Positions 13,476-61,360 of a stretch of 64,000 bases of DNA are shown in pieces. The translations under genes and the position numbers were made by a program. Positions within the stretch are counted from its first letter, which is position 1; the number at the start of each line of letters is the position of its first letter. Under the pieces are notes generated by a model. The model did not search any database. It was not told the DNA's origin and saw nothing but the letters and a program-made list of their open reading frames with translations. The DNA comes from Stegostoma tigrinum (taxonomy: Eukaryota), in NCBI RefSeq assembly GCF_030684315.1, contig NC_081371.1, forward strand, positions 29,631,440-29,695,439. Reading direction: 5' to 3'.

Positions 13476-13575
13476 TGCTGAGGAAAGGTCACCCGAATTG
13501 AAACATTAATTCTGATTTCTCTTCACAGATGCTGCCAGAACTGCTGAGCTTTTCCAGCAACTTCTGTTTTTGTTA
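13476..13575 (+). mobile_element. PLE terminal (pLTR) fragment with decayed hammerhead motif
   Basis: CTGAGGAAAGGTC...TTGAAACATT followed by the GATGCTGCCAGA..CTGCTGAGCTTTTCCAGCA tail shared with 40809-42769. Confidence 0.7.
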
Positions 13576-14149
13576 GCAGTAAAAATAACACTGCACCATT
13601 ACCTCTTCCTATTCTCTTTTACTTCAAACCATCCTGGATGCTCTGGCTTTAAGGCCCCTACTTTCCTACATTAAGATTGCACACAAGTTGTTTTTTCTTT
13701 AAAGATCAACCAATTCTCTTAAAATTCTGCATCTCAGCTTTTCACTGAAAATCACCAGATCTGTCAATGTGCTGAAATTAGTCCTCCCTACAATTAAATA
13801 CTGTTATTCTTGGCTGCCTCTTGCTTTACTGCATTACTAATCTAAATCCTAGGATTAAGATCACTATTTTGGAGGTGCTCCTCCAATTGATCCAAGGCAG
13901 GTGGAGTTGACGAATGGAAAAGAGGTGGCAGTTTGTTAAACTACTTGTCTTATCATTCTTCCTTAGATCAGTGTGTACTATCTGTAAGATACACTGCAAA
14001 ACCTGCCATGAGTTCTTCAACAGTAACATCAAAACACATTTTACTACCGAGAAGGAAACTTGCACCAGGCACCTGGGAACAACATAGTATAATAACAACG
14101 AAACCAAGCGATGCAAGTCATAGAAATATTGACAATGATGAGTACTTAC

Positions 14150-14196
14150 AATGACATTTCATTGAAACTGTAATATCTAAATTGATTCGCAGTTTG
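14150..14196 (-). CDS. ERGIC2: ERGIC2 coding exon
   Basis: ttgcag|...|gtaagt, 47 nt, reading KLRINLDITVSMKCH. Confidence 0.95.
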
Positions 14197-14901
14197 CTGC
14201 AAGATAAAAGAAGAATTTGGAATTATTGCTTCAATAATATTGTTGCCATTTTCAAAAATTAACTAACTTTTGGGGACCTTTTCTCTTTAAAAAAAAACTT
14301 GAGCAATGCTACAGAAGATGCAGAAGTATGAATTAATAATTTTATATTCCTCAGAGTGGAATGACGTATGATTGTCATTTCCAAAAATACTGACTGACAT
14401 AACTTAACTACAAAGTATTGAATTGGTCAAATAGTCAGCAAGCATCATACTTCAAAAAGGAAAACAGAAACCAGCACTGTAAACATTCAACATTCAATTC
14501 ACATTTGATTTCTTAGCCTGCCCCAGAATCTTGTTTTAGAAAAGGTTGATTCCACACATCTGTTCTGTCCATACTTTCTGTAGTTCCTAACCACTCAACT
14601 CCAATAACACAATCCTCCTGCCTCCTTAGTCACTTTGGGCTTGGTCTGCATCTCACTCAAGCTCTCTCAAACCCACCATCTCTCGTTCACGACCTGCAGA
14701 ATATTCAACACATTGCAGATTGCTGCTATTCTACAGGAGGATTGAAAACCTAAAATGCATGACTACGGTCGCCATTAGTAGAAAGTGATTTTCTAAAAGC
14801 AGATTATTTCTAAAAGCCAAAAGTCAAAATTTTTTTTTGCAGTTTTTGTAATTTTACAAATGTTTTGATTTGTTGATCAATTCCCCCGCGAGTCATAAAG
14901 A

Positions 14902-15100
14902 AAGTAAGGACTGCAGATGCTGCAAGCTAGAGTCAATAAATGTGGGGCTGGAAAAACCTCCGAGGAACAGGAAAGTCAACGTTTCAGGCCAAAACCCTTT
15001 GTTAAGAGTCCTGATGAAGGGTTTGTCCAAAATGTTGACTTTCCTGCTCTTTGGATGTTGCCAGATCTGCTGTGCTTTTCCAGCTCCACAGTTATTGACC
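14902..15100. mobile_element. Short inverted PLE pLTR pair (hairpin)
   Basis: Two opposite pLTR ends meeting at ~15007-15010. Both hammerhead cores are damaged. Confidence 0.75.
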
Positions 15101-15263
15101 CCACCCTTAGAATTTGCTGTCCTCAGTACTAGGGCTGTAAACAAAAACCACAGAAAATTGACTAATTCCAGATGTGTCTCCTGTGGAGTCACTGACCTCT
15201 GAGTCAGTTATTGGAAAACGGAACACACAAAGGCTCTCAAAAATAAACAAGTCAGATAGTCAC

Positions 15264-15372
15264 CTGGCAAAGTCTTTGTCTACTTCATAATCATACTTCA
15301 TCCATGTGTCACAATACACAAAAAATTCCATAACAGACAATAGAGCAATGGTGGTAAAGGCAATTATAGAAA
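15264..15372 (-). CDS. ERGIC2: ERGIC2 coding exon (first transmembrane segment)
   Basis: ttacag|...|gtgact, 109 nt, reading (V)SIIAFTTIALLSVMEFFVYCDTWMKYDYEVDKDFA(S). Phase is consistent with neighbouring exons. Confidence 0.96.
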
Positions 15373-15476
15373 CTGTAAAGAAATAATTATCACAGTTAAT
15401 ACATGTTAAGAATTAACATACAATGATATTCAATGTAAAATTAAATATGCTAGTTAGGATTCCAAACTGAAAGCAC

Positions 15477-18741: not shown

Positions 18742-18889
18742 GTGATAATGGGAACTGCAGATGCTGGAGAATCCAAGATAATAAAATGTGAGGCTGGATG
18801 AACACAGCAGGCCCAGCAGCATCTCAGGAGCACAAAAGCTGACGTTTTGGGCCTGCTGTGTTCATCCAGCTTCACACTTTATTATCTTG
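18742..18889. mobile_element. Short inverted PLE pLTR insertion (young family)
   Basis: Near-identical to the ends of 37119-38193. Flanked by TGCCTCTGCAT duplicates at 18729-18739 and 18888-18898. Confidence 0.85.
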
Positions 18890-19870: not shown

Positions 19871-19879
19871 GCTTTATGA

Positions 19880-30841: not shown

Positions 30842-31705
30842 AGCGAGTTTTGAAAAGATTTGTAGCTCAGGTTGGAGGTTCTGGATGTGAGTTTGCTCAC
30901 TGAGCTGGAAGGTTAGTTTTCAGATGTTTCGTCACCATTCTAGGTAACATCAGTGAGCCTCCGACAAAGCGCTGGTGTTATGTCCCGCTTTCTATTTACC
31001 TGGTTAGGTTTCCTTGGGTTGGTGATGTCATTTCCTGTTCTTTTTCTCAGGGGATGGTAGATTGGCTCCAAGTCAATGTGTTTGTTGATGGAATTCCGGT
31101 TGGAATGCCATGCTTCTAGGAATTCTCGTGCATGTCTCTGCTTGGCTTGTCCTTGGATGGATGTGTTGTCCCAATCAAAGTGGTGTCCTTCGTTATCTGT
31201 ATGTAAGGATACGAGTGATAGTGGGTCATGTCGTTTTGTGGCTAGTTGATGTTGTATCCTGGTGGCTAGCTTCCTGCCAGTTTGTCCAATGTAGTGTTTG
31301 TCACAGTCCTTGCAAGGTATTTTGTAGATGACGTTCGTTTTATTTGTTGTCTGTATAGGGTCTTTTAAGTTCATTAGCTGCTGTTTTACTGTGTTGGTGG
31401 GTTTGTGGGCTACCCTGATGCCAAGGGGTCCGAGTAGTCTGGCAGTCATTTCGGAAATGTCTTTGACGTAGGGGAGTGTGGTTATGGTTTCTGAGCCCGT
31501 TTTGTCTGTTTGTTTGGGTTTGTCTACCATCCCCTGAGAAAAAGAACAGGAAATGACATCACCAACCCAAGGAAACCTAACCAGATAAACAGAAAGCGGG
31601 ACATAACACCAGCGCTTCGTCGGAGGCTCACTGATGATGTTACCTAGAATGGTGATGAAACGTCTGAAAACTAACCTTCCAGCTCAGCGAGCAAACTCAC
31701 TTCCA
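30842..31705 (-). mobile_element. Penelope-like element, 5'-truncated, with GIY-YIG endonuclease ORF and inverted pLTR
   Basis: ORF 30940-31530 NVIYKIPCKDCDKHYIGQTGRKLATRI...REFLEAWHS. Inverted arms 30882-31061 and 31523-31705. 12-bp TSD GTTAAACCTACC at 30830-30841 and 31706-31717. Confidence 0.93.
31628..31667 (+). ncRNA. Minimal hammerhead ribozyme motif (PLE family B)
   Basis: UCA-CUGAUGA-U-GUUACC(UAGAAU)GGUGAU-GAAA-CGUC-UGA, with a 3-bp stem I UCA/UGA and palindromic ACGU stem III. Confidence 0.7.
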
Positions 31706-36280: not shown

Positions 36281-37215
36281 CTCCTGTTTCCATGGAGTTG
36301 AGGACGTCTATCATTTAGAAAAGCAAGGGGAATCATAACTGGTCAAAGAAAAAAAAACATAAATTAGCTTGGTGCTTTGTCAAAGAGGTCGGGGTTTAAG
36401 CAGCACCCAAAAGGAAGAAAGAGTGCGTTTCAGCATCTGGCGATCAGAAACCATTGATGTATTATGGAGTTGGACTCCAGCGACTGAGCAGGAGGCGTTA
36501 GCGATAAAACAGCTCTGGGACGGGTAAAGCATTCGGCACTGGCAAGCTCCTGCGTGTGAGGATTTAAGCAAAAAGCCCAGATTTTGTGGTCAGTATCAAA
36601 GCAGCAGAAAAAGATACCCTTTAAATATAGTTAATGTTAATACTTAATGTACGTTATTAAAATTTATATAGCAATAGTGATCAAAGGGTGTCCCAAAGCA
36701 TTCGACACCCAATAAGCTATTTTTGAATTGTAGTAACTTGCTAGGAAATTCAGGAGTCGATTTGCATCCAGCAATCTCGAGGAGCTATGAGAATGTGGTG
36801 ATCTAGAAGGTCTTTGCAATGTTCGGAGACATAGTTTCCAATCCCACCATGGGCAAATAGCGAAATTTGAATAAGGAGGTGTGGTCCTGTGGTAATGTCC
36901 CTACGACCCAGGTAAGTCCCACCTGCTTCAGAGTTATGCCATAATATGCCTGACCAGGTTATTTAAAAGTATCTACGGCAAGCTGCCACTACCTTAGTTA
37001 TCCACTGCCATGACAGTTAACAAATGTTTTTGTTTTCGTTTGACTAGAGAATTGGGTCATGGGGCGTTGACCAGTGATGTAAGTGCGCAGCAAAAGGAAC
37101 AACCAATTAGATTGATGAGAGATAATGGGAACTGCAGATGCTGGAGATTCCAAGATAATAAAATGTGAGGCTGGATGAACACAGCAGGCCAAGCAGCATC
37201 TCAGGAGCACAAAAG

Positions 37216-38132: not shown

Positions 38133-40451
38133 CTTTTGTGCTCCTGAGATGCTGCTTGGCCTGCTGTGTTCATCCAGCTTCACATTTTATTATAATTAGA
38201 TTGATGACACCTCATTGACACTTGCATAGTGTAAACCACAAAGTATAGAACATTGAACATTACAGCACAGTAAGTTTTAAATCATATGCAGAAATCACAT
38301 TAAAGATTGGGAATTAAATATGGGTTTGAAAAAGACACAAAACAATTACATTTATAGCAGTGATGAAATTCTGAAGTAGCAAGAACTCCACACTTTTGAA
38401 ATTAAATTTTCAGTGCCAAAGATATTTTTAAGTATTTATGAATGATTGATCATGCCATTAAATGTTAATCTTAAATATGAATTCACCAGTCCTAACTTTC
38501 CCTGTATTGTTTAATGGGCAGCTATTAGGTAACTACAGAAAGTACTAGAGAAAATCAGCACATCATGGGTCTCTTTGTGGGACTTGAAACATTGACTCTG
38601 TTCCACTCCACGGATGCTGCCAGACCTGCTGGGTTTATCCATCGCTTTATTTTAATTTCACATCTTCATGATGTGCATTATTTTGCTTTTAATTGTTAAG
38701 TGCTGCAACTTTATGTGCTACATGAATTTCAACAATGAGTGTATAGAAAAATACAAGTACAGGACAGACTGTGGAGAAGCAGAGTAGCTCGAACCTCAAA
38801 CTTCTGAATTTCCAAGTGTATGTGCATACCTTTGGTTGCTGTCCAATTTACTTCATAATAATACTGTACGCTATTAGTCCCAGTATTTTTCTTAATGCAA
38901 AATCCAGACCAATGTCTTTTATTGCTGATCTGTTTACTCCTGAATAATTGTATTAGCTTGGTTCTCATCTCAAGTGGATGTATTGGTAGACAATTTAGTC
39001 TATTGTCGTTCAAACAGATCATTGTTAATCTGTTGGTAACCTAACTATTAGTACCCACCTTTTCCCTATCAATCAATCTTCTTTTAAATTTAACAATTGA
39101 CTCAACAACTATGTGGTTTGTGGAAGACAGTTTCAGAAACCCTTTGTGTGAATAAGTGTTTTCTTACACCACCCAAAAATATGAATATACAAATTAAGAG
39201 CAGGGGAAGGCCATTGAACCCCACTGCCATTTAATAAGTTATCAGCTCATCTGATAGTTCCGCATTCCCACCTACCCTTGATAACCTTTCATCCCATTGC
39301 TTCTCCAGAATTTATCTACTTCTATCCACAAAAAAAGGATGGTCTGTCCGCCACATTTTGAGGAACAAGTGTTCCAAGGATTCACAAATCTCTGCAAGGA
39401 GAAAAGTTCGCATCACTCTTTGACTCCTTGTTTTTAAATAGTGATCTCTGGTTATAGATTCTCACACAAGAAGAAGCAAACACATCCATCCTGTCAAGAT
39501 CCCTAAAGGTCTTCTATTCTTGTTCTGACATTTATCCAATTCCTCCAGGTTTGGACTCCCAAACCTTTGAAAATAATTTATCTCTATCTACCCTATCTGT
39601 TCCTCCTAAAACCGTCAATGAAATTACTGCTTAAAGCTCTAAATTCTAGAGTATATTACCCTAGGTTGTACAATATCACCACGTAATTAACCCTTTGATT
39701 TCATGTCTCATTCTGGTAAATCTGTGCTGTACTCATTGTCATACCAATATATCATTCTCAAGGTGTGGCAGAATATTCTGTTCACAATTCTCTGGGTCAT
39801 CGAATCAGAATTTTGCATTGCTGGAGCATGACTTCTATTCACTTGAACTCTAATCCTAACAGTATAAAAGCTTTAATTCCATTTGTCTTTTTGATTATTT
39901 ACAGGATGTACATTTACCTACATTGCAATCCATTTGTCTGTTTTATTCATTCACTTAACATATTAATATTTCTTGGTAAAATGATGCTTTTATCTGCACT
40001 GCTTTCAGTACCAATTCTCTTGCCACCTGGTTGAAAAGTATGTAAATGGAGTGATTACATGATAGGGGTTGTACTTGGCAAGAAATAGAAACAGTAGAAT
40101 CTGTTATTAAGATTGCTGTTTAGATTCTTTACTAAAAAGCACTCTATTTCCTCTTATATTTTTCACATGTCTACTTCGAAAATTTTAAGGTCAGCTTCTC
40201 TAATTTCCTGTGTTCACATTTGACATAAATGTTACAACTAAGTTGCAGTTCTGAATTTTAAGGTATCAGTGGAATAATATTTAAGTTTTACCTTCAGGAC
40301 TTTTCTGAGTATAGTCTTCTAGACAAGTATAATACAAATAATAAAAATAGAATGTAATCTTGCTCATGCTTTGAAATTGTCAAGGGATCGTTCTCAAATC
40401 TTAATGTCACCAAAAAGGCAGCTTTGCATAACAGGACATTGTTTATTAAGG

Positions 40452-40715
40452 CTGACAATAACAAATGCTTAAGATCACAGCAGGTCAGGCAGCCACCATG
40501 GAGAGGGAGCAAGCTATATTGTTTGGGGTCTGGATGACTCTTCATCAGAGCTGACATGAAGTTTGGAGAGGCCAGCATTTGTCACTTCACATCAGCTCTG
40601 ATGAAGAGCTATCTAGACTCGAAACATTAGTTTGTTCTCTCTGCCTGACCCACTGTGAACCCCAGCATTTGTTGTTTTCAGTATAAATGCCAGCATTTGC
40701 AGTAATTTGCTCCTT
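40452..40715. mobile_element. Short inverted PLE pLTR pair
   Basis: CTGATGAAGAG(CTATCTAGA)CTCGAAACAT at 40598-40628 and an opposite copy at ~40517-40548. Perfect 15-bp TSD CATTGTTTATTAAGG at 40437-40451 and 40716-40730. Confidence 0.85.
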
Positions 40716-40808: not shown

Positions 40809-42769
40809 AATAAAATCAGGAACAAAAACAGAAGTTGCTGGAAAAGCTCAGCAGGTCTGGCGGCATCTGTGAAGACAAAATCAGAGTTACTGTTTCAGGT
40901 CTGGTAACCCTTCCTCAGAACTGATGGTAGCTGGGAAAACGTCAGATTATATGTAGAAAATAGGGAGGAGGACGGGTTAGAGAGTAAGCGATAGGATAGC
41001 GCCCACACAGAGAGAAGAGCAGTTGGATAGACAAAGGCGTTCATAATGATCTGGCTGGGAGGGTGAACAGCTGTTAATGGGGACTATTAGTGACTAACAA
41101 TAGGTAGCATGTAATGGCAGACTTAGTGATAACAAGGCCTGATGTGTGGGGTAGGAGGCTAGGACCCGGGACAGTTTAGGCCCTAAAATTACGGATATTG
41201 AGTCCGGAGGGCTGCATGGTCCCCAAGAGAAAAATGAGGTGTTGTTCTTCTAGCTTGCATTGAACTTTGCTGGAGCACTGCAGCAAGCCAGAGACGGAGA
41301 TGTTGGCCATGGAAAAGGGTGGTGTGTTAAAGTGGCAGACAACGGGTCGCTCCGGGACTTTTTTTGTTTGTTCCAGTCCAATTCTGGACCCCAATCGCAA
41401 TTCTTTCTTTTCCGATATATCGATGGTATCATTGGTGCTGCTTCCCTCTCTTGTCCTCAATTGGAGAAGTTCATCAATTTCGCTTCCAATTTCCACCCTG
41501 CCATCACTTTCACCTGGTCTATCTCTGACTCCTCCCTTCCCATCAGTTTTTGTTTCTGGGGTAGACTGGCCACTAATATCCACTGACTCCCAAAGCTATC
41601 TCGACTAAGCAGCCTCACACTCTGCTTCCTGTAAAGACTCCATCCCATTCTCTCAGTTCCTCTGTCTCCATCGCATATGTTCAGATGAGGCCAGCTTCGA
41701 CAAGGGAGCCTCTGAAATGTCTTCCTGCTTCCTCAATTGAGGATTCCCCAGCGCCATTGTCAACAGAGCTCTCAACCGGGTCCAATCCGTCTCCTGAACT
41801 TCTTCCCTCCCACAACAGTGATAGGGTTCCCTTGTCCTTACCTACCATCCCACTAGCATTCTCCTTCAGAAGATCATCAGATGTCATTTCTGCCATCTCC
41901 AGCAAAATGCCACCACCAGACGCATATTCCCCTCCCTTCCCTTGTCTGCCTTCTGTATGGACCGTTCCCTCCAGGACACCCTCGTCCACTCTTACTTCAC
42001 CCAACAACTGCGTCCCCCCCAAAGCCTCACAGCACCTTCCCCTGCAACCGGCAAAGGTGCAACACCTGCCCATTTACCTCCTTCCTCCCCAGTATCCAAG
42101 AGCCCAAACAGACCTTCGAGGTGGCACTTCCCAGAATCTAGTCTACTGCATTTGCTGCTCAAAATGTGGTCTCCTCTACACTGGGGAAACAAAACTTAGA
42201 TTGAGTGACCGTTTCACAGAACTTCCAGGTTCTACTCACAAAAAAGACCCCGAGCTACCTGTTGCCTACCACTTTAACACGCCATCCTGTTCCTTGGCCG
42301 ACATCTTGGTCTCTGGCTTGCTGCAGTGTACCAGCGAAGTTCAACGCAAGCTGGAAGAATAGCACCACCTCATCCGCTTGGAGACATTGCAGCCCTGCAG
42401 ACTCAATATTGAGTTCAATAATTGAATTAGCCCCCTTGCCCATATACCAGGCCTTGTTATCGCATAACCTATCACTTACACACTACCTCTTGTTAGTTAC
42501 TAACAGTCCCCATGAACAGTTATTCACCCTTCATAGCCACCTTTTTATCAACTCTTTTGTCTATCTAACTGCTGTTCTCTCTCTTTGAGCTCTTTCCTAT
42601 CACTTACTCCCTATCCCATACCCTTCCCTGTTTTCTGCATGTAAACCAACATCTTCCCAGTTGTCATCAGTTGAGAAAGGGTCACTGGATCCGAAATGTT
42701 AACTCTGATTTTGTCTTCACAGGTGCTGCCGGACCTGCTTAGCTTTTCCAGCTGCTTCTGTTTTTATTC
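40809..42769 (+). mobile_element. Decayed PLE with RT + GIY-YIG remnants and an inverted 5' segment (40809 to ~41357)
   Basis: FFRYIDGIIG...LEKFINFASNFHPAITFTWSIS (RT) and NLVYCICCSKCGLLYTGETKLRLSDRF (GIY-YIG). TSD CTAAAT(A/G)AAATGTTA at 40794-40808 and 42770-42784. Confidence 0.9.
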
Positions 42770-43891: not shown

Positions 43892-44470
43892 AGAGGCAAA
43901 AAAAACTGCAAATGCTGGAATCCAAGGTAGACAGACAGGAGGCCAGAAGAACACAGCATGCCAGGCAGCATCCAGAGGAAAGGAGAAGCCAACATTTCGG
44001 GTATTACCGTCCTTCAGGACTGGATGTGGGGTTAGGGGGAGCTGCAGATAGAGTGGTGGTAGGTGGACAGTGGTGATAGGTGGATACCGGTAGTAGGTAC
44101 AACTTAATAGATTGGTGGGAGGGATGAATTTGGTTCGTACCTGGAAGGGAGGGTCAGTACTTGGAATGGAAGGGAGGAAGCAGGGCTGGAAAGGGAGCCG
44201 GGGGTTGGGTGGGAAAGTTATTTGAAATTAGATTCCTCTGTGTTAAGTCCACTGGGCAGTAGGGTGCCCAGGCAGAAGATAAGGTGCTGTTCCTCAAATT
44301 TGCATTCTGAATCACTGCGACACTGGAGGAGGCCGAGGACAGACATGTTGTAGGGGGAGTGAGATGGGGGTGTTGAAATGGGTGGTGACCAAGAGGTTAG
44401 GCTGGCTGTTACAGGCCAGGTGAAGATGCTCAGTGAAACAGTCACCTAGTTTACATTTGGTTTCACCGAT
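43892..44470 (-). mobile_element. PLE 3' fragment
   Basis: SVLGLLQCRSDSECKFEEQHLIFCLGTLLPSGLN plus pLTR. Confidence 0.85.
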
Positions 44471-44668: not shown

Positions 44669-45641
44669 GAAATCATAAGAACTGCAGATGCTGGAGTCAG
44701 AGATAGCACAGTGTGGAGCTGGAGGAATACAGCAGGCCAGGCAGCATTAGAGGAGCAGGAAGGTTGACGTTTCAGGTCGGGACCCTTCTTCAGAAATGGC
44801 AGGGGGAAAGAAATAAATCGAGAGAGGTCGGTGAAGTGGGAGGAGCAGATAGGTGGGAGAGAAGATGGACAGGTTGTGTCAGGAGGTGGAGATGAGGGGA
44901 GAGTTGGTCATGGGATGAAGCTGGGGATGAGGAGATTTGGAACTTGTAAAATCCACATTTGGGCCATTGAGCTGTAGGCTCCCCAGGCAGAATATGAGGT
45001 GCTGCTCCTCCAGTTTGCAGGTGGCATAACCTTCCACATTAGACAGAGGTTCACCTGTGCATCTGCAAATGCGGTCTGTTGCATCCACTGCCCTTTATAT
45101 GGCCTCCTCTACATCAAAGAGATCAAGTGGAGGCTCGGAGACCACTTTGTAGAGCACCTGCGCTCTGTTTGTGACAAACAACAAGACCTTCAGGTCGCAA
45201 ACCATTTCAGTTCCCACTCCCTAGGTGACATGTCTGTCCTTTGGTGTCACAATGAGGCCACCTGCAAACTGGAGGTGCAGCACTCATATTTTGCCCTGGG
45301 ATCCTACAGCGTAATGGCATAAATGTGGATTTTACCAGTTTCAAAATCTCATCCCATGACCAACCTTCCTTCTCATCCCCGCCTCCTTGACCTGACACAA
45401 CCTGTCCATCTTCTCTCCCACCTATCTACTCCTCCCACCTCACTGACCAATCCCGCCACTCCCTACCTGCACTCAACTGTCACCACCCCAACCCTGGCCC
45501 TCCTCTATTTATTTCTGAGCTCCCTTTCACAACACCGCCACTCCCACCGCTCATTTCTGAAGGGACCCGACCTGAAACATGAACTTTCCTGCTCCTCTGA
45601 TGCTGCCAGGCCTGCTGTGTTCCTCCAGCTCTGCATTGTGT
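44669..45641. mobile_element. Inverted PLE insertion
   Basis: GIY-YIG remnant (CCIHCPLYGLLYIKEIKWRLGDHF). TSD TGATCCT(G/A)TATTGA at 44655-44668 and 45642-45655. Intact hammerhead core on the minus strand at 44766-44793. Confidence 0.88.
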
Positions 45642-46561: not shown

Positions 46562-49384
46562 GGATATTGTTTAAAAGAAATTAGTCTACCCTGAGAATGC
46601 TTGGGTCTGTCCAAAAGTACTGCTGCAAAAGGAAGGATGGTAGAAAATAGCATGTAATGGAGAGGATGTGATGATTGTGTAGTGTGCAAAAACACAAAAC
46701 AAGGTTACAAAAGCCATTCAGCTCATGAAGACTTGTGCATCTATAGACGAGGTGAATCCATGTCTTCATGATTTAAGACAGTGCTTGAACAATTGAATGG
46801 CATGTTGATCATTTGCTTGGGCCTGCTCAAAATGTTTCTGAACAACTAGTGTTCTTGAACAATGGAATTCCCTGCTGGAGAGGTTCCAGTGTAGTATCAC
46901 AGAATCTTTTACATCCACCTGAGAGCACAGACAGAATGTCGGTTGAATGTTTTAAAAATCTACACCAGTGCTGCACTGAAGGTAGAGCCTATGTTAAGCG
47001 TACAAGTCTCTGAAATGGGGCTGGAACCCAAAATCTTCTGACTCAGTGGTAAAATTTCCACCAGCATGCCAAAGAATAGCAATCACTACATGGTTGACAG
47101 AAGGAAGTTTAATTATTAATTACAATAGTTATTACTTACAATTTTGAATGATAAGGAAATTCCAAATCTAGTATACATTATAGACATGGTATATCTAATA
47201 ATGATCAAAAATCAGTTCACTGCTTTTCACTTTTAAATTCACATTTAACCAACGAACATTTCAGAACTTAAGATAATCTTTTAAACCAGTAAAATAATAA
47301 TTTACTAGTTGCTTTAACAATGTTACACATGCAATACTGTTAGGTTCATCAGCTGTTGTGATAACTTCTATATTCTAACTCATGAGACAAACCTTTTGAC
47401 GTATAAAGTTTTATCCAAGTCTATTGTTGAGTTTTCCTTCGACAATGGCACTGCTTAGTAGTCAGTCAGCAAAACAATTCAGATCACCCATTAATTAGTG
47501 TGATAAAGCCTAATGACCTTTAAATGTTTGACAAAAATCTCATGATCCTCCACCCTTAGCCTTGTGATCTTAGATGAACCATGATTTTTCCATTAATTTT
47601 CCTTCATCGGGCTGAAAATTCAAAGGATCTTCTAAATTGCACACAAGAACTTGTATTTATACAGCATCTTTTAGACAGGAAACATTTCCAGTATTTCACA
47701 GAAAAAAAAGGTAAATATAGGGGTGAAAGAATAGATAACTGGCTCTGGTGCATTAGTTAAGCAAAATTACAGATGATCTGTCCAGAAACAGGAGTTTTGA
47801 GGATTGTTTTCAAATAGAAGAGTGTAATGGAGAGGTTTAGAAGCAATTATCATGGAGAGGGTTGAGATGATTGAAAGTTTGCTACTATTAGTGGAACAAA
47901 AAAAAAACTGATGAGATGAACAGAAGACCAACACTATGGGGGCTAAAGAATGCAGCATGAAACATTAAGCAGAAAGTAAAAATATAGAAAAAAAGTGGGT
48001 GAAGCCATGGAAAAGGAATGGTGAGACTTACGCAGCACAATGTAGAAGTAGGAGAGCAGTATTTATGGAGAGAAAAGCAGAGTTGACATTTCAGATGGAT
48101 GACCTTTCATCACCAGGGCTTTTAAGCAGATGCAGATGATAGTCTGATAAGGGAAATGTTAGAGAAATTGTGTCTAAAGATGAGTAATAAAGGTGAGATA
48201 GGGTTTTAGCAGCAGTGGGAATGATGTATGAGAAGTTGCAGGTAATACTGAGAGGTGGAAATTAGTGGCTTCCTAAACAGGTAGGATATTGCATTTGAAG
48301 CCAGCTTTAGAAAAAAAAAATCCCAAGGATTTACAAGGTATAATTAATCCAAAGAAACTGATACAATTTGAGGATTACATGGATGGATGGAGCAAAAGTG
48401 TCTGTTGAAGGACAGAAGAAAGATACGCATTCATTCAGTACTTTTTTTTACAAACTCAGGCCTTCCCAAAACACTTATAGTTAATGAAGTACCTTTGAAA
48501 TATTACCATTGTAAAACAAGAAATGCGGCATGAAGTTGCAGACAGCAATATCTTACAAATAGCAAATGGCTAGGTGAGCAGATGTTTTGCTGGTATCGGT
48601 TAAAGAATAAGTATTGACCAGTACAAGGGACTAAAGTCAGACATTGGCAAAAAAAAATTTCCACAGAACCACAGACCTGTTACAGTTGCAGAAGGTGGCC
48701 ATTCAACCCATCATGTCTGCAATGGCTATCAAAACGAGAATCATGACTTAGTGCACTCGGCCTTTTTCTGATGCCCTTGCATAGTGTTTCTATTCAACTA
48801 ACCATTTAATATTCTTTAGAATGCCTCAATTGAACATGACTCCACCCCACTCCCACGCAGTGCATGCCAGACACCAAACCACTTGTGTGAATTTTTTTTT
48901 TACATCACATTTGCTTCTTTTGGAAATCCCTCTAAATCTGTGTCTTCTCATTTTTGATTGTTTTCTGCATGAGAACAGTTTTTTTCCTTTGTAATCAATA
49001 CAAATCTTTCATAATTTTGAAAACTTCTCTTCAAGGAGAACCATCCCAAGATCTCTAAAATATCCTCATGACTGATGTTTCCACTAATAGGAAAGACTAA
49101 GACCTGAGGCCACAGATTCAGAGTGAAGGCATGACCCTTTAGAACTGTGATAAGGAGGAAATTGTTCAGCCAGAGCGTGGCAAACCTGTGTAACTCGTAG
49201 CCACAGAAAGCAATGGAAGTCTAGTAACTAAATGTGCTAGTTATGATCTTGATTAATAAGAAGAGGATCAAGAGTCATGGAAGGAAGGCAAAGAATAGGG
49301 TTGAGAAACATATCAGCCTTGAATGAATGGAGGAGCAGACCGATGGGCTGAATGGCCTAGTGCTGCTCCTATATCTTATGGTGT

Positions 49385-49792: not shown

Positions 49793-50000
49793 AGACAAAT
49801 GGGATCTGGAAGAACACAGCGAGCCAGGTAGCATCTGGAGGAAAGGAACAGTCAACATTTCAGGTATTACCCTTCTTCAGGACTGTCAGCCCTGAAGAAA
49901 GGGAATACCCGAAACGTTGACAGCTCCTTTCCTCCAGAGGCTGCCTGGCTTGCTGTGTTCTTCCAGACTCTTGTTTGTCCAGCTTGGATTCCAGCATCTG
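49793..50000. mobile_element. Short inverted PLE pLTR pair
   Basis: Arms meet at 49881-49891. Plus-strand core CTGAAGAAA-GGG(AATA)CCC-GAAACGTT. TSD CAGGA(A/G)ATCTTACTT at 49778-49792 and 50001-50015. Confidence 0.85.
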
Positions 50001-50460
50001 CAGGAGATCTTACTTGACTAAGTCAGAAGTCACACAACACCAGGCTATAATCCAGTAGGTTTATTTGAAATCACGAGCTTTCAGACTGCTGCTCCTTTGT
50101 CAGGTAAAGTCACTTCAGTTCTGGGGATGAACATGATTTTAGTTCAAAATCATTGAAGCAGGGTATGAGAAATCAAGATGGCAGGCCTTAAAACATCAGA
50201 AAACATAGGAGTTGCAGGGAGGTCTGGGGGTTAAAAGCAATTTAGAGGGTTTCTTAGCCAAATATGAATGAAACGAGCCCTTGAAATATTTTACCTTAGA
50301 GAATAGCTGGAACACTGAAGAGAAAACAAAGTGAATTCTAGAGGGTTGATATATACATTTGTTTGGTAACAGGGAAAATGAATAACCATTCAAGAGTTAA
50401 GGAAATTCGTGCGGGAGGAACTGAAAAATAGTTTAAAGAAAAGTCTTTATAAGCTGTCAC

Positions 50461-50561
50461 CCCTCTCTGATGAAGGGTCTAGGCCCGAAACGTCAGCTTT
50501 TGTGCTCCTGAGATGCTGCTGGGCCTGCTGTGTTCATCCAGCCTCACATTTTATTATCTTG
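50461..50561 (+). mobile_element. PLE family A terminal fragment with intact hammerhead core (50467-50496)
   Basis: Near-identical to 38097-38193. Confidence 0.88.
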
Positions 50562-51802: not shown

Positions 51803-52220
51803 CTTTTTTTAAAGAGAAAACAAAATGTATTTGTTACATTAAAGGTTTATACATGCTGTATTGTGAAGTTTATTCTTGAGCTGCTTAGTATTAAGTTAGG
51901 CTTAATATTAAGCAATATTTAGATATGTATTCCTAAATCTGCTCATTAATCTCTCTTCTACATACTCTGAGCCAGCATTAGGGTGGTAAATTTATATTTG
52001 TAAAAGATTAACTTTCTAAATTAGTATAACTGAAATACAAATTCTGTCTTTAATGTGTATGAATTCAAGGCTCTTCAAATATGTTAGCATTATTGTTGGA
52101 TGTAACATTCCTGTGAATCAAAACCTAAGGGGCTGGGTAATAGGAATGTCCTTTTGAAAATGTTTAATAAATCAGTTGAATTGTATCCTCATGCAGAATG
52201 AAGCTGACTTCATAGGGGTA

Positions 52221-52443
52221 TACAAGGTGTACAGATGGATGAACACAGCAGGCCAAGCAGCATCAGTGCAGCAGGAACGCTGATGTTTCCGGCCTAGACC
52301 CTTCTTCAGATTTTCTGAAGAAGGGTCTAGGCCCCAAACGTCAGCCTTCCTGCACCTTTGATGCTGTTTGGCCTGCTGTGTTCATCCAGCGCTACACCTT
52401 GTACATCTCAGAATCTCCAGCATCTGCAGTTCCTACTATCTCC
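52221..52443. mobile_element. Short inverted PLE pLTR hairpin in THAP5 intron 1
   Basis: Arms 52221-52310 and 52314-52403 centred on CTTCTTCAGA-TTT-TCTGAAGAAG. Both cores carry point changes. Confidence 0.85.
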
Positions 52444-52969
52444 GACTTAAATAATACTTATAAAACTTGTAATCATGAATACATACATTTCTTAATAAAA
52501 TCTTTTACATTTGTGATGCAAGTTAAGTAGTTTCTATTTTCTAAATGGGTGGTACTTGATTCCAGGAGTCTCTGACATTCTAGTCTTTGTGGACATATGG
52601 GCATACCCTGATGCTTGAACATGACATGAAACAATTTAAGTGATATGCTGCGGTCTGCTTGAGCCATTGTAGTGCTGTGCCCTGCTGACCATCACAGTCA
52701 ATTCTAATGTTACATCTTCCATTTCCTGTCAATTACTGTCCAGTTTCAATCTTCAAAGTAACAATAGTCTGTTGACAGTTGTGTATGTGCATGAAGGTCA
52801 GAACAAGATCACTTGCTTTTCTTTCTGGTCTAACTGGAAGAAAGCTTGGTCATCCAGTGAGATACAAAAAATCTGCCGACATTTATGAAACATTACTCCA
52901 GTGTAGCTACTGCGTTCTGTAAATGGGAATAGAGATTTTAATGACAAGTGATGTACATGTGGAACATTA

Positions 52970-54865: not shown

Positions 54866-57800
54866 ACTTATACAGTGAAACAGCAGTCAGACCAAACAAT
54901 GAACACAGAGAATGGATAGCTAAAAGAAAAGTTGGACAAGGTTGTTTTCTGTTTGCAGAACTTTCCAGTCTTTATAGTGAAATTTGGAACAATGTTGACC
55001 CCATTACTTGAGAAGTGATGTAGTTGCATTGAAGGCAGTTCAGAGGAGATTGATGAAAATGAATCCACAGATGGGGGAGTTTATCTTCTGAAGACAGATT
55101 GAGTATTCAGGCCTATATTCTCTGGAGTTTAGAAGATTGAGAAGAGATCTAACTGAGGGATATAACATGCTACAGAGGATCTATAAAGTGGATATAGAAA
55201 GGATGTTTTCTTCATGTGAGCAATCTAGAACAAGATGTCATATTTTAGATAAGGGATAATTGATTTAAAACAGATGAGAAGAAATTACTTCTGTAAGGGT
55301 CATATATTTGTTACCCCAAATTGTGGCTAGGACATTGAGTAAATTTAGGGAGAATATACCAGATTTTTAATCAGTAATGGGTTGAAGGGTGATGGAGAGT
55401 GGGCAGGAAAGTGGAGTTGAGGCCAAGATGAGATCAGCCACGATTGAATTAAATGGCAGAGCAGGCTCGAAGGGCTGAATTGCCAACTCCTGCTTCTAGT
55501 CGTTAAAGTCTTATGAAATTACTACAGAGCATCTATAGGAGTTTTAAAAATGTATTTATGGCAAGTGGATGTCACTGGCTGGGCCAGCATTTATTGCCCA
55601 TCACTAATTGCCATTGAAAGATTAATGGTGAACAGCCTTCTTACATGCTGCAATCTGTTTGGTGTAGGTAAACCAACGATGCAGTTCAGGAAAGAATTCC
55701 AAGAGTTTGACCCAAACTATCACCAGGAATTTCAATAATTGCAACAAATACAAATAATCTGAGATAAGCTGATTACGCAATAATTGTAGCAGTTATGAAG
55801 GAAAGTCTATAGACTTCTAGATGCAATTGTAATAGTAACAGATATGGATTGTCATTAATCTATGAAACAAGGATTATTTCTAAATACAAAATATTGGTGA
55901 AATCAAAATAAATGAAACAAGTGGAATTTTTGTTCTGCTTGGGTGGCTTAATTTTGATGGGAAAAGAGATAAAGACACCAGGAAGCATATAACACTTGCA
56001 AAACAAAAATGAGACCTCTTAGAATATGAGCACCTCCATAGAAAAATGAGATGGCCAAAATGCTTCACGTGTGTAATGTTTTCATATGGATTTGACATTG
56101 AAGTATAAACGAGATAATAGAATGGATGTCAGTTCTGAGACATTTACGAATTACTTGGACCACACACAGGTAATGAGGAACCTTTGAGGAAAAGCAGGCA
56201 CGTAAGAAGAAATTTTGTAGATGATCACCAAAGGACAATTACAATTGTTTGGGTACATATTTAGTAGAGAAAAACTGGAACATGTATAAGCAACAAAATT
56301 AATGTTCCATCATGCCGCCGTGTTGCTCTTATCAGATTTCATTTGGCAGCAGGGCATTCACTGTGTGCCATGCATGTGTGCATTGGTTGTACACAGGAGT
56401 CAATGGCTCATGGATAGCTCTTATTATCTAGCAGCCACCCTTTGGTTTTAGATGTTGGCTCAATGCAACTAGCACAGCAAACTGATGCAGAATAAAGATC
56501 TCATAGCCACTGCCAGACTATCAGATATTGACCTGAATGTTACACTACCTGTTCACATACTTGACAGTCATTGAGGTTGCGTAATTTATTATTGTTCCAG
56601 TACAGCGCAAAGTTGGCATGCTGTATCCACAAAGTGTTTTGCTTTAAGTGGAACCCTGCATCATGGTGAAGCCTGTAATCCTAACAAATCAGATGCTTGC
56701 CTTTGGTAAAAGAGAATGGAACATATTTATTTAGCTGTCATTAAATTGACAGTCTCAGTCACTTCCTTTATGCAACAGTGGATACAAAACTGTGAGATGC
56801 CGTATCTTTACCATTAGCTTGAAGGGAGTCAGATGCATTACAGCTTCTCACGAAGATCACCTTCATTGCCACGGGCATTGTATTCTTTGTCCTGCTGTGA
56901 GGTTGCAGTTGTGAATGCAGCACATGGCACATTTCAGTGAGAACATCTTCTGCAGGTCAAATATTGAACTGCGAGAAGTTGACTGGGACATTAATCTCCA
57001 AACTGTTGCATGCTGTTTGACATCATAATTTCTGTGACTTGCACAATTATAGCAGTTATTGTCTGCATGTAAGCTAACTTTTACACCAATACAGTACCTG
57101 CCATAATGCTGTGGAGGCCATAGCAGAGCCCTAAGGGCACACAGCATATGTATAAAAAACAAATCTAATTCTTACAGTTTCATTTTTCAATTTACGGCAG
57201 TTGACTATCAAGTGAATGAGGATCTAAGTGACATTGGTGGGGTTTTCACTATGTGATATTGTTAGTATGTCTTGCAGAAGCTAAGATGCTGCTAGGCCTG
57301 CTTTGTATCTCGGATTCTGCAACATCTGCAGTTCCCATTATCTCTTATCTTACACTGTTGGTTCTTCTAGTTATGCTAGCAATACAGCCAGCACAAACAA
57401 CTTCAGAACATAGTTCAAAACATGTCTCGAAACGTCAGCTTTTGTGCTCCTAAGATGCTGCTTGACCTGCTGTGTTCATCCAGCTCCACACTTTGTTGTC
57501 TCGGACTCTCGAGCATTTGCAGTTCCCATTATCTCTGATTATGACACACTGATTTTCTCATCTTTGTCCGTAACTGCCTCTGTTAGCAATGAATTTTTGA
57601 GCTCTCCTCTTTGCAATTTGTCTTGGCTATATGATCTCTTCCATCACAACTCCTACACTTCCTCATCCTACTAGATTTTGAGTCTCAGTCAGCCAATCAA
57701 CTGGGCTATCTGCTCCCCATGTCCTGACCAGATACGACCCCTTTCTATCATCTTTTCCGACTCCTGATTTGCAAGAATGTATATGTTGTACGACTTTGCT

Positions 57801-58450
57801 CATGTCTTGGCTGTTGAAATTTTATCTGTGATTTAATGCCTCTAGAATCAACTATTGCAATGCACACTGGGCAGCTTCCTATGTTCTACTCACCTTAAAC
57901 CTGATCCAACATTTTCTTCTTGAGTGCTGATTCTTACTAAATCCCATTCATCCATCAACCCTTTATTACTCAACTAAACTGGTGCTTGTTTAAGCAGTGC
58001 CTTGATTTTAAATGTCTTCATACTTCTTTTCAAAGCCTCCATGACTTGAGGTCAACCTTTTCTCTGACATCTCACGTCCAAGATGTTTGTCTTTCTCCAA
58101 ATCTGACCTCTTGAGCATACCACATTCGCCAGAGGCACACCGACGATGTTACCTAGCAGGGTGATGAAACATTTGCAACCAAACCCACCAGCTGTGAACA
58201 TGTCGACAACCTTATTTGTGGCTGTATCTTCAGCTGCCATGGCCTTAAGCTGAGGAATTCCTCAATAAACCTCTCTATTGTTCTTCAAGGTATATCTTAC
58301 AGCTATCTCTTTGATTAGACTTTTTGTTATCTATCTGACATATGGCTTGGTGTGAAATTTTGTTCATATTCTTGAGAATATATTACACCTTTGACGAAGA
58401 ATAAGTACAAGCCACAGTTATGTACTGGGAAAGTTAGTTGGATCAAAAAC

Positions 58451-58543
58451 TCTGATGAAGGGTCTAGGCCCGAAACGTCAGCTTCTGTGCTCCTAAGATG
58501 CTGCTTGGCCTGCTGTGTTCATCCAGCTTCACACTTTGTTATC
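58451..58543 (+). mobile_element. 93-bp PLE family A fragment with intact hammerhead core (58452-58481), inserted at the end of an older opposite-strand pLTR (to ~58642)
   Basis: 13-bp direct repeat TTGGATCAAAAAC at 58438-58450 and 58544-58556. Confidence 0.88.
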
Positions 58544-59279
58544 TTGGATCAAAAACAAAGTTGCTGGAAAAGCTCAGCAGGTCTGGCAGCATCTGTGGAG
58601 GAGAAAACAGAGTTAACTTTTCGGGTCCGGTGACCCTCAGAAAGTTAGTTGGAATTTGGAGCTTGAGTTCTGTTCCCAGATGATATACTTTCTTCTGCTA
58701 CCTCCTTTGTCTGCTCTCTTGCTGTTCCCTATACCTTGCATTCTGACCTCTTCTGTGCTTGTACTTTGCTGTGTTCTTCTGCAATTTTTTTTGCTCTTCA
58801 TACCTCTAACCCTTGTTCCTTCATATGGTGCTATTTAACTTATCTGCTATTGCCCTAAATGCCCACTCCTCCTCATATGAACATTCACGTGTAGATCTCC
58901 AGCCCCCAAATCCCAATACTCAATAATAAACAATTGACATATGAGATTCAGATTATTGATAACATCATTCATTATAAAGCAAGGGACAATGACTGTGGCA
59001 TTGCTGACAAGGCAATCTGCTAATGCATGGAATATTTAGGATAGATTGCAGATGTGCAATCTGGATTAACCTTGTAATTCCTACTTTTTCAGTGCATGCA
59101 TTACTCGAAAAGCGTTAGCTTTCTTTCCTTTTAGACTTCAATAAAACAAAGTTGCCGTATCTTAATTACTGCTCTTAATTGATCTTATGAAGCTTAGTGT
59201 TATTATGTGCGTTGGACCTTAGGATTCTTGATTTTCAGCGGCACCATGGACGGTGATGTTTCAGCCTTTTTCTACTTAC

Positions 59280-59362
59280 GGGTAGAAGCCCAATTTCTGA
59301 TTATCAGATGACAACTGGCCACTTCGATTAGAGCAGCAGGCAACCGCGCAATATCTAGGCAT
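59280..59362 (-). CDS. THAP5: THAP5 exon 1 (start of THAP zinc finger)
   Basis: MPRYCAVACCSNRSGQLSSDNQKLGFY(P), 83 nt, donor gtaagt. Confidence 0.95.
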
Positions 59363-59500
59363 TTCTTTGCGACAGAACCAAGGTAGTGGCGAACAGTGCA
59401 ACGCGCAGGAACCCTGAATGCGGAAGTGAAATCACAAAGAACGCTGTATCAGCGACGCGACGTGGAGGCAGCCAATAAGTGAGTGATTCGTGGTGGAAGG
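59363..59500. promoter_or_regulatory. THAP5/DNAJB9 bidirectional CpG promoter with UPR-type elements
   Basis: ETS CGGAAGTG 59421-59428, GACGTGG (XBP1/UPRE-like ACGT core) 59459-59465, CCAAT 59472-59476, second CGTGG 59489-59493. Confidence 0.75.
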
Positions 59501-59572
59501 GGTTCTAGAACACGGTGTAACAGTTCAGGGTGTTTCCTGCTGCTGTGTGCGGTTTGGGAAAGGCTGCTACCG
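59500..59572 (+). other. DNAJB9: DNAJB9 non-coding exon 1 (5' end approximate)
   Basis: Strong donor CCG|gtgagt at 59572/59573, downstream of the CCAAT/ACGT promoter. Confidence 0.7.
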
Positions 59573-61226
59573 GTGAGTGCTTCTGACAAATAGACTAGGC
59601 CCAGATTTCCCCGCACAGTCGATCCTGCTGCTATCTAACTGTAATCAAAATCGGTTTCGCTTTCTTTGTATTTATTTTTATTTTAAATGTTTTTTACAGC
59701 TTTCATTGTGAGTCGTACGAGCGTTCGCTTTCGTGTGCTTTCTATCCTGTGCGTAAGACTGTTGTAAGAAAGCCCTGGTAATGGAGGGGTAACGGATAGT
59801 GGCGAATTTGCACGGCTGGCATCAGGCTTGTTGTTAGGTTGAGTGTGTCGCCGCATTAGCTGAGTAATAAAGCGGGTTCCGTGGCATCATCCGGTTGTGC
59901 TGCTGAAAAGCGAAGCTTTTCTGTTTGCCAGTCTTTTCGCGACATGAAAAGTGAAGAAAATTAATTCTAAAAGCACTTTCTGTCTCCTACTTTGGTTAAA
60001 ATCTTTTAGTTTCTGAGGGTAATGAGAGTTATTGCCAAATTTCACACTATACTTCTGTAAAGAAATTAACTCACCTTAACCGAAGCCCGAAACAAAACGT
60101 GAAGCGCCCACTGACCTTTGGTTCTTTTGAGATGTGAATTTTTTTGCACTTTATCGATGTCATATTGTATTCGATGGCCTTCGCTTGCAACAAACTCGAT
60201 TCTGTCAATACAATGATCAGTTACAAAACAGGTTGAGATTTTATCACTACGCAGGAGATGTATTTGTTTTACATTGAGCCCTTTGTATAGTCGTCAAAAT
60301 GTTACCGATGTCGCCGTACTTGCTTTTGAACCAGTGCAGATTACTGAAACCAATTTGATTGAGTTGTCAGTGATTTATTCAGGGCGTAGGTGAAAATTTG
60401 CTCATGTTTTGAGAGGTAGATGTGTAACTGACGACAGAATACTGAAACAAATGTGAACAACTTTTTAAAAAATAAAATACTGTCTGGGAGCTTTTTAGTG
60501 TCCAATGATAGAAAAGTATAATCAGGCCCAGCAGAGCCGCCTTGAGATAAGGAGGGATATGTAATGACTTGTGGCCTTATCAGTATTTCCTGAAACCAGT
60601 TGGAGAATGCAAGGCAGAAAAATCAACGAAATCGCTTTCCCCTCACTGAGACACCACATTGTTATTCAATAGAACAATGTATGCAGTGAAGTCTGTGATA
60701 AGAGCATTTCACTTTGAATTATATTAGTCAGTACCAACCTTACTTTAAAAAAAAAATTCCTGTATCAGAGGTTGCTACAAAAATGCTAAAAATTGAACTA
60801 AGAAAGTTTTCTGGGACAAATGGTAAAGCATGAAAGTTCTTTCACAGACAATGTACTTAGCACTATTGAATATTATTTCTGTGATTGGGCTAGTGATTGT
60901 TTTTTTGGAATTCTGTGGGTTAATGATCTATGTGGCTTACTTTAAAGTAGATGTTGTATTTTGGCATAATTAATCATGCAATCAAGATCATTTCTCACTG
61001 ACAGAAATGAATGTGTACCAGGAAATATACAGGTGAATGTTGCATTCATATTTATGACATTTGAGAATTTATTGGAAATAGGTAGTATAAGTGACATTAG
61101 AAGGTAACTTGCAAGTAACTGATATCTGCTGAAGTATTGGTACTTGTGAACTTCCAAGGTGCACTCTGTCAAAACCCTTGGGCACTTGTTAACACAGCTT
61201 CGTCCCTCCCTTGCATACATGTGATA

Positions 61227-61360
61227 CATAAAAATCTGAACTGTAGATGCTGGAAATTAGAAACAAAAACAGAAATTGCTGAGAAAACTCAGCAGGTCTG
61301 ACAGCATCTGAAGAATTGTCGCCGGACCTGAAATGTTGACTCTGATTTTTCTCCACATAT
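61227..61360. mobile_element. Old short inverted PLE pLTR remnant in DNAJB9 intron 1
   Basis: pLTR tail joined at CTG (61308) to a decayed CTGAAGAA...CCTGAAATGTT core. Confidence 0.65.

Follow-up and report, generated by a model that had tools for sequence, protein, structure and literature searches.

Minimal hammerhead motifs on mostly fossil Penelope-like element termini in a shark genome

The window analyzed here, a stretch of 64,000 nucleotides (64 kb) from Stegostoma tigrinum, contains fragments that are best understood as 3' pseudo-LTRs (pLTRs) of Penelope-like elements (PLEs) with an endonuclease. Their minimal hammerhead ribozyme (HHR) likely cleaves only in the RNA of an active element, together with a partner copy and probably with the protein of the element, while the genomic copies decay like their surroundings; we give this reading a probability of about 0.88. 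The minimal PLE hammerhead class has been known since 2014, and the copies described here are mostly fossils.

A scan of both strands of the window for the core pattern CTGANGA-N4-40-GAAA-CGTH recovered exactly seven intact cores, at 31631-31664(+), 37245-37218(-), 38103-38130(+), 44793-44766(-), 49892-49918(+), 50467-50494(+), and 58452-58479(+), the same seven sites that had been proposed by the initial annotation. Under a stricter descriptor that demands one extra base, at least 3 bp in stem II, and CGUH, six of them remain and 200 dinucleotide shuffles contain none, while the loose core alone matched 24 times in the window as compared to 8.9 ± 2.9 matches expected by chance from shuffles. 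A profile search furthermore yielded 27 Neptune-type pLTR pieces (none in the reversed window) and BLAST three of the Poseidon type, and these 30 pieces correspond to about 20 insertions after grouping. Only six insertions supply the seven intact cores, because 37245 and 38103 are the arms of a single event. The very high density of PLE-type minimal hammerheads claimed at the outset is thus borne out, with seven intact cores per 64 kb. The suggested check by Rfam, on the other hand, gave no hammerhead among the seven window matches at E ≤ 5 and would therefore miss these motifs; the matches to MIR533, mir-3431, mir-2432, and mir-423 were sub-threshold, are located on inverted pairs, and were dismissed.

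Also upheld is the description of the motifs as PLE-type minimal hammerheads of type I in which A9 is followed by an additional base and stem III consists of ACGU without a loop. All seven copies follow the order CUGANGA ... GAAA ... UH and carry the palindrome ACGU, which forms no stable stem III, and six have both the extra base between positions 9 and 10.1 and a G10.1-11.1 pair, the exception being 49892 with an A at 10.1. Among the 21 aligned Neptune-type copies, eight preserve the central CG of ACGU, while 12 of the other 13 read CA or TG, that is, products of CpG decay. In the copy with the arms GAG-N9-CUC (40598), which had been counted among those with the palindrome, the actual letters are CAUU and hence non-palindromic.

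Among the stem II pairings listed earlier, GGGUC-UA-GGCCC and GGGUC-CC-GACCU as written would force 2-nt loops, the workable form of both being 4 bp with a 4-nt loop. Likewise, GGG-AAUA-CCC at 49892 is, judged from the sister copies 49880(-) and 44017(-), likely a mutated GGGU-AAU-ACCC, and stem I of this copy is damaged as well. Covariation had been placed in stem II, but across the 21 aligned copies its four pairs show three two-sided and 17 one-sided changes and vary mostly by G-U wobble, whereas the two core-proximal pairs of stem I show five two-sided changes each; in total, 11 of 14 two-sided cells lie in stem I. Paired cells amount to 79 % as compared to 17-50 % in slid controls, and the pairing support was reached in one of 500 shuffles, a value inflated by the relatedness of the copies. 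Pairing of helices I and II is thus backed by compensatory change, with two-sided covariation mainly in stem I. That the motifs merely reflect chance patterns in repetitive DNA has next to no probability, even though chance would account for about nine of the 24 matches to the loose core, Rfam recognizes no hammerhead, and isolated monomers fold no better than shuffles (z between -1.0 and +0.9): the full motif is absent from all 200 shuffles, the paired cells clearly exceed those of the slid controls, and the motif matches the published consensus and, in two clades, lies at a constant position behind the PLE endonuclease.

Judged by homology, the PLEs in the window are one Poseidon-type family (B) and several Neptune-type subfamilies. 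Accordingly, the "at least five lineages" inferred before shrink to two clades, with the Neptune-type copies being subfamilies that share one common pLTR tail. Endonuclease remnants lie upstream of the HHR in subfamilies A, C, D, and F and in family B, while no endonuclease is linked to E or G. The Neptune CX2-5CxxC linker was seen in subfamily F only (FPCNRQRCNTC), subfamilies A, C, D, E, and G being placed by homology of the pLTR or of the endonuclease C-terminus, and the linker zinc finger is absent from family B and its relative P0001. Homologues of the remnants are annotated as GIY-YIG, with CCHH-type residues; Pfam gave no match on ten PLE-remnant ORFs. Neither an RT domain nor a full RT-EN ORF is found in the 64-kb window, the RT portion having been truncated away, and the close shark relatives P0004 and P0006 combine PF00078 with the same endonuclease region. 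In addition, the same HHR motif lies about 215 nt downstream of a related endonuclease on one metagenome contig (L002). A family-A stretch had no match among metagenome contigs. Horizontal transfer between sharks and flukes is not supported, as sharks form their own branch beside, not inside, the flukes (SH-aLRT 92) in a rapidly computed tree in which 144 of the 162 rows carry no label.

The Poseidon-type insertion of family B (30842..31705) consists of a GIY-YIG/CCHH remnant with pLTR on the (-) strand and an inverted 5'-truncated arm on the (+) strand, the arms being 3.9 % apart and flanked by a 12-bp target duplication (at 30830 and 31706). Its remnant (31030..31491, (-)) is 85-89 % identical to Stegostoma PLE proteins and 55-58 % identical to fluke GIY-YIG proteins. 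The intact core at 31631..31664 (+) has a 3-bp stem I, a 6-bp stem II with a 6-nt loop, and ACGU, with a predicted cut after 31664 (+), while the HHR of the main arm (30923..30953, (-)) is broken by a 3-nt deletion and reads CAUC. The Neptune-type insertion of subfamily A at 37119..38193 is very young, with head-to-head arms that differ by 0.4 %; what is left of an endonuclease C-terminus lies near 37612-37725, and a target duplication of 14 bp flanks the insertion (37105 and 38194). Both arms carry an intact core with a 2-bp stem I, at 37218..37245 (-) on the left and 38103..38130 (+) on the right, the latter with a predicted cut after 38130; this cut point and 31664 had been placed correctly beforehand, as predicted positions. 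An intact core with a 2-bp stem I and a 4-bp stem II (44766..44793, (-)) is also present in the inverted subfamily-C insertion 44669..45641, which contains endonuclease remnants, a deletion in the right core (about 45555), and a target duplication (44655 and 45642). In the pLTR-only inverted pair 49793..50000 of subfamily D (target duplication 49778 and 50001), from which the sub-threshold miRNA-model matches originate, the HHR at 49892..49918 (+) has all core letters intact, yet both stem I and stem II are damaged. The two remaining intact cores belong to subfamily-A pLTR fragments antisense to a THAP gene: 50460..50561 (+) spans about 100 bp with the core at 50467-50494, and 58451..58543 (+) (core 58452-58479; 13-bp target duplication) lies in an intron of the gene and is nested in the terminal part of an older fragment of subfamily F ((-), reaching to about 58639; 14-bp duplication).

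All other copies are damaged, decayed, or truncated. The old subfamily-F insertion 40809..42769 contains the Neptune C-X4-C-XX-C linker alongside a remnant of the GIY-YIG domain (about 42000-42410); its cores at 40918(-) and about 42672(+) are both decayed, and a target duplication flanks it (40794 and 42770). The subfamily-D copy 43906..44470 (-) contains an endonuclease remnant (44221-44470) and a decayed HHR (about 44017). Further inverted pairs are 40452..40715 of subfamily E (cores 40549(-) and 40598(+) both decayed; target duplication 40437 and 40716), 52210..52445 of subfamily A' (cores 52309(-) and 52315(+) both damaged), 14913..15114 of subfamily G (truncated and decayed), 18744..18887 of subfamily A (truncations within the HHR and behind it; target duplication 18729 and 18888), and 61243..61374 of subfamily F (decayed; in the first intron of a DnaJ gene). 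Decayed single pLTRs comprise 13461..13586 (+) of subfamily F, found by profile search, the F-like copies 38567..38674 (+), which lacks the first core box, and 48036..48128 (-), and 58125..58196 (+) of family B. Lastly, 57261..57539 (+) harbors two subfamily-A fragments, of which that at about 57281 consists of the tail only and that at 57428 breaks off within stem II.

Seven of the ten head-to-head pairs have target duplications of 12-17 bp, so each pair is one insertion that is unable to dimerize in cis. Overall, such duplications flank nine of 20 candidate insertions as compared to two of 300 random pairs at the same score (rows 57281 and 58141 were dropped as self-overlaps). Inverted 5'-truncated arms, an optional tail, and target duplications, all hallmarks of EN+ PLEs, are therefore present in the window. 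An alternative scenario is that the units of about 100 bp in subfamily A constitute a non-autonomous retrozyme- or SINE-like family that is mobilized independently. Many pLTR-only copies with similar ends, a huge contig pile-up on this unit, and 41-bp tandem duplications of the core among the listed joints would fit, as would the fact that retrozymes are pLTR-derived and known in one chondrichthyan. However, there is no tandem HHR array in the 64-kb window, the same pLTR is joined to endonuclease sequence at 37119-38193, and the 5' ends range from -7 to +60, as truncation predicts, which makes independent mobilization unlikely.

The claim that these loci retain self-cleaving termini is not supported by a comparison of the arms. 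Differences between arms affect 9 of 74 core and 28 of 221 tail positions (P=1.0; 6/68 and 28/221, P=0.52, when the truncated 15004 box is left out), and 6 of 14 CpG sites (P=0.008). As the core mutates at the background rate and thus as fast as the tail, nothing is "retained" after insertion; this test of neutral decay is small, and weak constraint on the core may still exist. Same-strand intact cores of one subfamily are, in addition, at least 7985 bp apart (the distance of the closest two), and the intact cores are likely inactive where they are located. Several pLTR copies lie in or beside the THAP and DnaJ genes, which could indicate that the host has exapted the ribozymes to act on these transcripts. 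This is very unlikely, though: the intact cores 50467 and 58452 have an antisense orientation with respect to the THAP gene while the sense copies 52309, 58637, and 61308 are broken, the segment 50460-50558, and thus the 50467 copy, is skipped in a contig from a related species, core decay is neutral, and the ORFs scanned between 5.1 and 50 kb revealed no coding exon. Pfam gave no match on 92 ORFs of this region (85 of 146 ORFs of 62-109 aa and seven longer ones) or on the last exon of the THAP gene.

In the preferred reading of pLTR fragments from formerly active PLEs, and based on published work on other PLEs, a GIY-YIG nuclease would cut AT-rich DNA, and RT would start about 65-100 nt downstream of the hammerhead, copy through it, and usually stop early. 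A second, inverted cDNA would often be joined at the 5' end, resulting in palindromic insertions of 100-1900 bp. At the RNA level, two ACGU palindromes may pair to form the 4-bp stem III of a double hammerhead, with cleavage after GUC or GUU. Imposing the active dimer on subfamilies A and C and family B carries a predicted cost of 16-34 kcal/mol relative to the best dimer fold, energies that leave out the tertiary contacts of the hammerhead core. For comparison, the HHR of an anole PLE requires the PLE protein, and uncut RNA was the main template in vitro (PMC11167929). Selection would act on the motif in the replicating lineage, not at these loci, and would thereby account for the compensatory stem I changes between subfamilies.

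The window includes a very young subfamily (A, arms 0.4 % apart), and such a young and abundant subfamily makes in vivo cutting by PLE hammerheads testable from insertion ends. As a supplement to the explanation above rather than its replacement, the HHR of young subfamily-A copies could be situated at the 5' end of a capped pLTR transcript that is cut in vivo, with template jumps of RT recording both ends, a doubtful but conceivable scenario. In assembled contigs of one run from Stegostoma tigrinum (X1), the strongest listed joint runs from the 3' end of the pLTR (50561) to 50495, the base that immediately follows the predicted cut, with depths of 545, 129, and 68 for GA, GAA, and A in between (unique DNA: 17-40); no copy number was derived from the total depth of the contigs (about 2.8e7 vs 17-40). 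An inserted G occurs at the end of all seven listed joints that restart at 50463-50469 but in none of the three at 50495, and 50559-50561 are the commonest 3' ends among those listed. However, these joints stem from the best 12 of 68 rows in contigs of a single run, their direction is not given, and one amplified event could produce them. Moreover, none of the eight family-A copies in the window starts at the cut, the host junctions of 58452 and 50467 have no extra G, 50495 is absent among the six loose-end places listed for X1, and no anole RNA reads end at the cut (PMC11167929). The junction pattern may thus be a first hint of in vivo cleavage but is no result yet. Should the genome indeed record such cleavage, which we consider a tentative idea with the odds against it, the capped start would precede the core by 2-4 nt, the ribozyme would cut off roughly the first 30 bases, and both ends would become fixed, extra-G junctions marking the transcript start and G-less junctions the exact cut. 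As there are probably 10^5 copies, an assembly alone would then suffice to quantify the part that PLE hammerheads play in vivo.

A literature search showed no paper on shark PLE hammerhead families among the entries listed; some of these families may be listed by Lunse et al. (PMC5785218) or in Repbase. The non-LTR retrozymes of Li et al. (bioRxiv 10.64898/2026.07.22.740005), reported in one chondrichthyan genome, are likewise pLTR-derived, HHR-bearing, and non-coding, but are tandem repeats with an HHR in each unit, an arrangement the window lacks. With the Neptune and Penelope/Poseidon EN+ clades (Craig et al. 2021, PMC8557442; Arkhipova et al. 2013, PMC3846280), the copies share the C-terminal GIY-YIG and, in the parts of these sources consulted, the inverted 5'-truncated arm, the tail, and the target duplications (12-17 bp here, 8-10 bp as described for rotifers) as well as the CX2-5CxxC linker in Neptune and its lack in Poseidon, which matches F and B; they differ in that no RT domain is left in the window. 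The Poseidon of Anolis carolinensis (Frangieh et al. 2024, PMC11167929) matches family B in clade type, has its HHR in the pLTR, and shares two RT start sites that give an optional tail, AT-rich targets, and cutting of both strands. It is full-length and tested, whereas the shark window holds only remnants, and its lack of RNA reads at the cut ends contrasts with the weak DNA-level hint for subfamily A. Close counterparts are the min-HHRs of metazoan PLE pLTRs with the consensus CUGANGAH-G..C-GAAA-palindrome-UH (Cervera & De la Pena 2014, PMC4209133), which have in common the type I core, the extra base 9/10.1, the G10.1-C11.1 pair, a palindromic 15.2-16.2 without loop III, and mostly single truncated copies with dual copies on opposite strands. 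As far as the accessible portions of that study reach, chondrichthyans are absent from its table and alignment, and subfamily A resembles the Acropora Neptune motif and family B the Clonorchis motif (Fig. S3). A stem I of only 2 bp in subfamilies A, A', and C, below most published examples, is a difference, and so is density: with seven intact cores per 64 kb as compared to 4,000 (Latimeria) and 9,000 (Xenopus) per genome (PMC4209133), carpet sharks appear to exceed by far the vertebrates counted so far in the number of these motifs.

A pattern search for CUGANGA-N-stem II-GAAA-CGUH found seven complete motifs in the window, confirming in place all seven hammerhead cores that the initial annotation had called intact. 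Six of the seven were kept by a stricter descriptor (any match in 0 of 200 dinucleotide shuffles), and the loose core alone gave 24 matches as compared to 8.9 ± 2.9 in such shuffles. An Rfam scan of the window, suggested along with these cores, returned no model matching the motif. In 21 aligned Neptune-type copies, 79 % of the cells are paired versus 17–50 % with slid partners; a pairing shuffle test gave 1/500, a figure inflated by kinship among the copies. The covariation ascribed to stem II lies mainly elsewhere, as most two-sided changes fall in stem I (11 versus 3) and stem II varies chiefly by wobble. Stem I measures 2 bp in subfamilies A, A', and C but at least 3 bp in family B and in subfamilies D, E, F, and G.

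Around the motif, a profile search delineated a repeat with 27 pieces (none in the reversed window), and a second, unrelated repeat (family B) has three. In family B, the Penelope-like element (PLE) terminal repeat piece (pLTR) is situated behind a GIY-YIG endonuclease remnant that shares 85–89 % identity with carpet-shark (Stegostoma) proteins, 61–70 % with Chiloscyllium, Hemiscyllium, and Rhincodon proteins, and 55–58 % with fluke GIY-YIG proteins. The host appears to be a carpet shark. The linker zinc finger was sought in family B and is absent which, by the criteria in the available text of PMC8557442, makes its sequence Penelope/Poseidon-type. Within the 27-piece family, remnants of the endonuclease precede the pLTR in subfamilies A, C, D, and F, the C-X4-C-XX-C linker characteristic of Neptune is seen in F, and one pLTR tail is common to all subfamilies. 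Linker and tail thus reduce the proposed "at least five PLE lineages" to two clades, one of them divided into subfamilies. Every named non-shark relative of the endonuclease in the family-B stretch 31030–31664 is a parasitic flatworm (Clonorchis, Opisthorchis, Dicrocoelium, Trichobilharzia, Sparganum, Schistocephalus); a quick tree places the sharks beside and not inside the flukes, so horizontal transfer between them is unsupported. Among metagenome contigs with related PLE endonucleases, one carries an intact minimal hammerhead downstream (L002:1339–1375) and two (L005, L006) carry decayed antisense ones upstream.

Ten head-to-head pairs occur in the window, their 3' ends facing outward. Seven of these pairs are flanked by direct repeats of 12–17 bp, as are two single copies (9 of 20 candidate insertions versus 2 of 300 random pairs at equal score), and every pair so flanked is a single insertion event. 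Arm divergence is 0.4 % in the subfamily-A insertion 37245/38103, 3.9 % in B, and 9–19 % at the upper end, marking A and B as the youngest waves. PMC8557442 and PMC3846280 describe an inverted arm truncated at its 5' end and an optional tail as standard PLE features, and dual minimal hammerheads on opposite strands were already noted in 2014 (PMC4209133, in part). As the arms lie on opposite strands, each transcript holds a single core in the sense direction. Between intact cores on one strand the shortest distance is 575 bp (different subfamilies), or 7985 bp within one subfamily. Inversion or truncation points lie within about 6 nt of the core 5' edge at 49880–49892, 52309–52315, 15004–15011, and 58451, a clustering that might reflect an RNA start or a stall of reverse transcriptase (RT). 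At 58429–58653, a fragment of subfamily A has inserted into the end of an older F fragment, each with its own perfect target duplication. A related species has, in one run, a single contig that lacks 50460–50558 (intervening letters not known), which suggests a lineage-specific insertion.

Arm-versus-arm differences in seven paired insertions, five with target duplications, are alike in core (9/74) and tail (28/221, P=1.0); leaving out the truncated box of 15004 (an arm of a subfamily-G pair), the core has 6/68 (P=0.52). The central CpG differs in 6/14 (P=0.008), and stem III has kept CG in 8 of 21 copies and reads CA or TG in 12. It follows that selection has shaped the motif in replicating lineages but gives it no measurable protection post-insertion, so that the self-cleaving termini cannot be said to be "retained" at these sites.

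According to PMC4209133, single minimal hammerheads did not cleave and dimers did so weakly. For an anole Poseidon, PMC11167929 reports cleavage only in the presence of the PLE protein and insertion in vitro that does not require cleavage; RT initiated internally, at either of two sites, and RNA reads with an end at the cut were not seen. By analogy, we infer a dimer-plus-protein mechanism for the shark families: ACGU palindromes from two copies would pair within a tandem RNA of an active element, its PLE protein would assist the paired hammerheads, and the genomic fragments in the window would be inert. Folding of short subfamily-A constructs by nearest-neighbour energies only predicts pairing between the core and the strand of the cleavage site (probability 0.3–1.0 at 58 nt), a pairing gone at 141 nt; the same energies predict the active dimer fold to be far less stable than alternative folds. 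At 38103–38132 (subfamily A), the core letters CUGAUG complement CGUCAG spanning the cleavage site, with a self-locking monomer fold predicted.

None of the eight family-A copies in the window starts at the predicted cut, consistent with uncut RNA as the usual template. A possible footprint of cleavage comes from one run, among the 12 joints listed of 68 with inserted letters. Three of these 12, including the strongest row listed, lead from the pLTR 3' end at 50561 to 50495, the first base past C17 (the base 5' of the predicted cut), and seven restart at 50463–50469, all with a final inserted G. Such a G is copied from the cap in LINE-1 retrotransposition. RT might run to the 5' end of one RNA and then jump to the start site on another, whereby the final G would be the copied cap and the G-less joints the copied cut end. 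That the joints record both a capped start and an in vivo hammerhead cut nevertheless appears unlikely, as neither feature occurs in the window's own copies and the joints compared are 12 of 68, listed with no joint direction; a single amplified event possibly produced the tandem joints, and the final G could be a subfamily base. A literature search found no published footprint of this kind.

In one run of the window's species, 87,180 contig records aligned to 50150–51800, their depth, which does not equal copy number, being concentrated on the 100-bp pLTR; the family is present in two further organisms as well. Extrapolated from seven per 64 kb in one window to a genome we take to be multi-gigabase, intact cores would number about 10^5 or more, as compared to 4,000–9,000 minimal hammerheads for coelacanth and Xenopus (PMC4209133, in part). 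Same-species contigs also show 41-bp tandem duplications spanning exactly the hammerhead (50463–50506), which probably arose via similar flanking sequence and would carry two cores in cis.

A CpG island at 59–60.5 kb is common to a minus-strand THAP-domain gene (start codon near 59360; exons 51610–51800 and 50959–51513) and a plus-strand DnaJ gene (coding exons from 61764 and about 62800), arranged head-to-head (50959–63248) and presumably THAP5/DNAJB9. PLE copies nearby have intact cores antisense and broken sense copies. The 96-bp intron 51514–51609 is spliced out in one contig from a run guessed to be RNA. Another CpG island (35000–37000), with no coding exon identified in its vicinity, may act as promoter for an unmapped gene. 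A LINE, presumably CR1-like, in which Pfam recognises endonuclease and RT domains, occupies 526–3121 (minus), with many decayed relatives at 4.5–5, 9, 19–24, 30, 32, and 53 kb.

The hammerhead class, its architecture, the inverted pairs, and the dimer model are already published. A search for literature linking sharks to PLE hammerheads (Lunse et al. and Repbase being outside its scope) found no description of these families, and a 2026 preprint describes, in its available part, hammerhead-bearing tandem units in one chondrichthyan (bioRxiv 10.64898/2026.07.22.740005). The initial annotation was thus correct in its catch, and the shark families are fresh instances of a published class. The family-B hammerhead is near the published Clonorchis motif, and subfamily A shares its CUGAUG/CGUCAG complement with the Acropora Neptune motif, likewise published.
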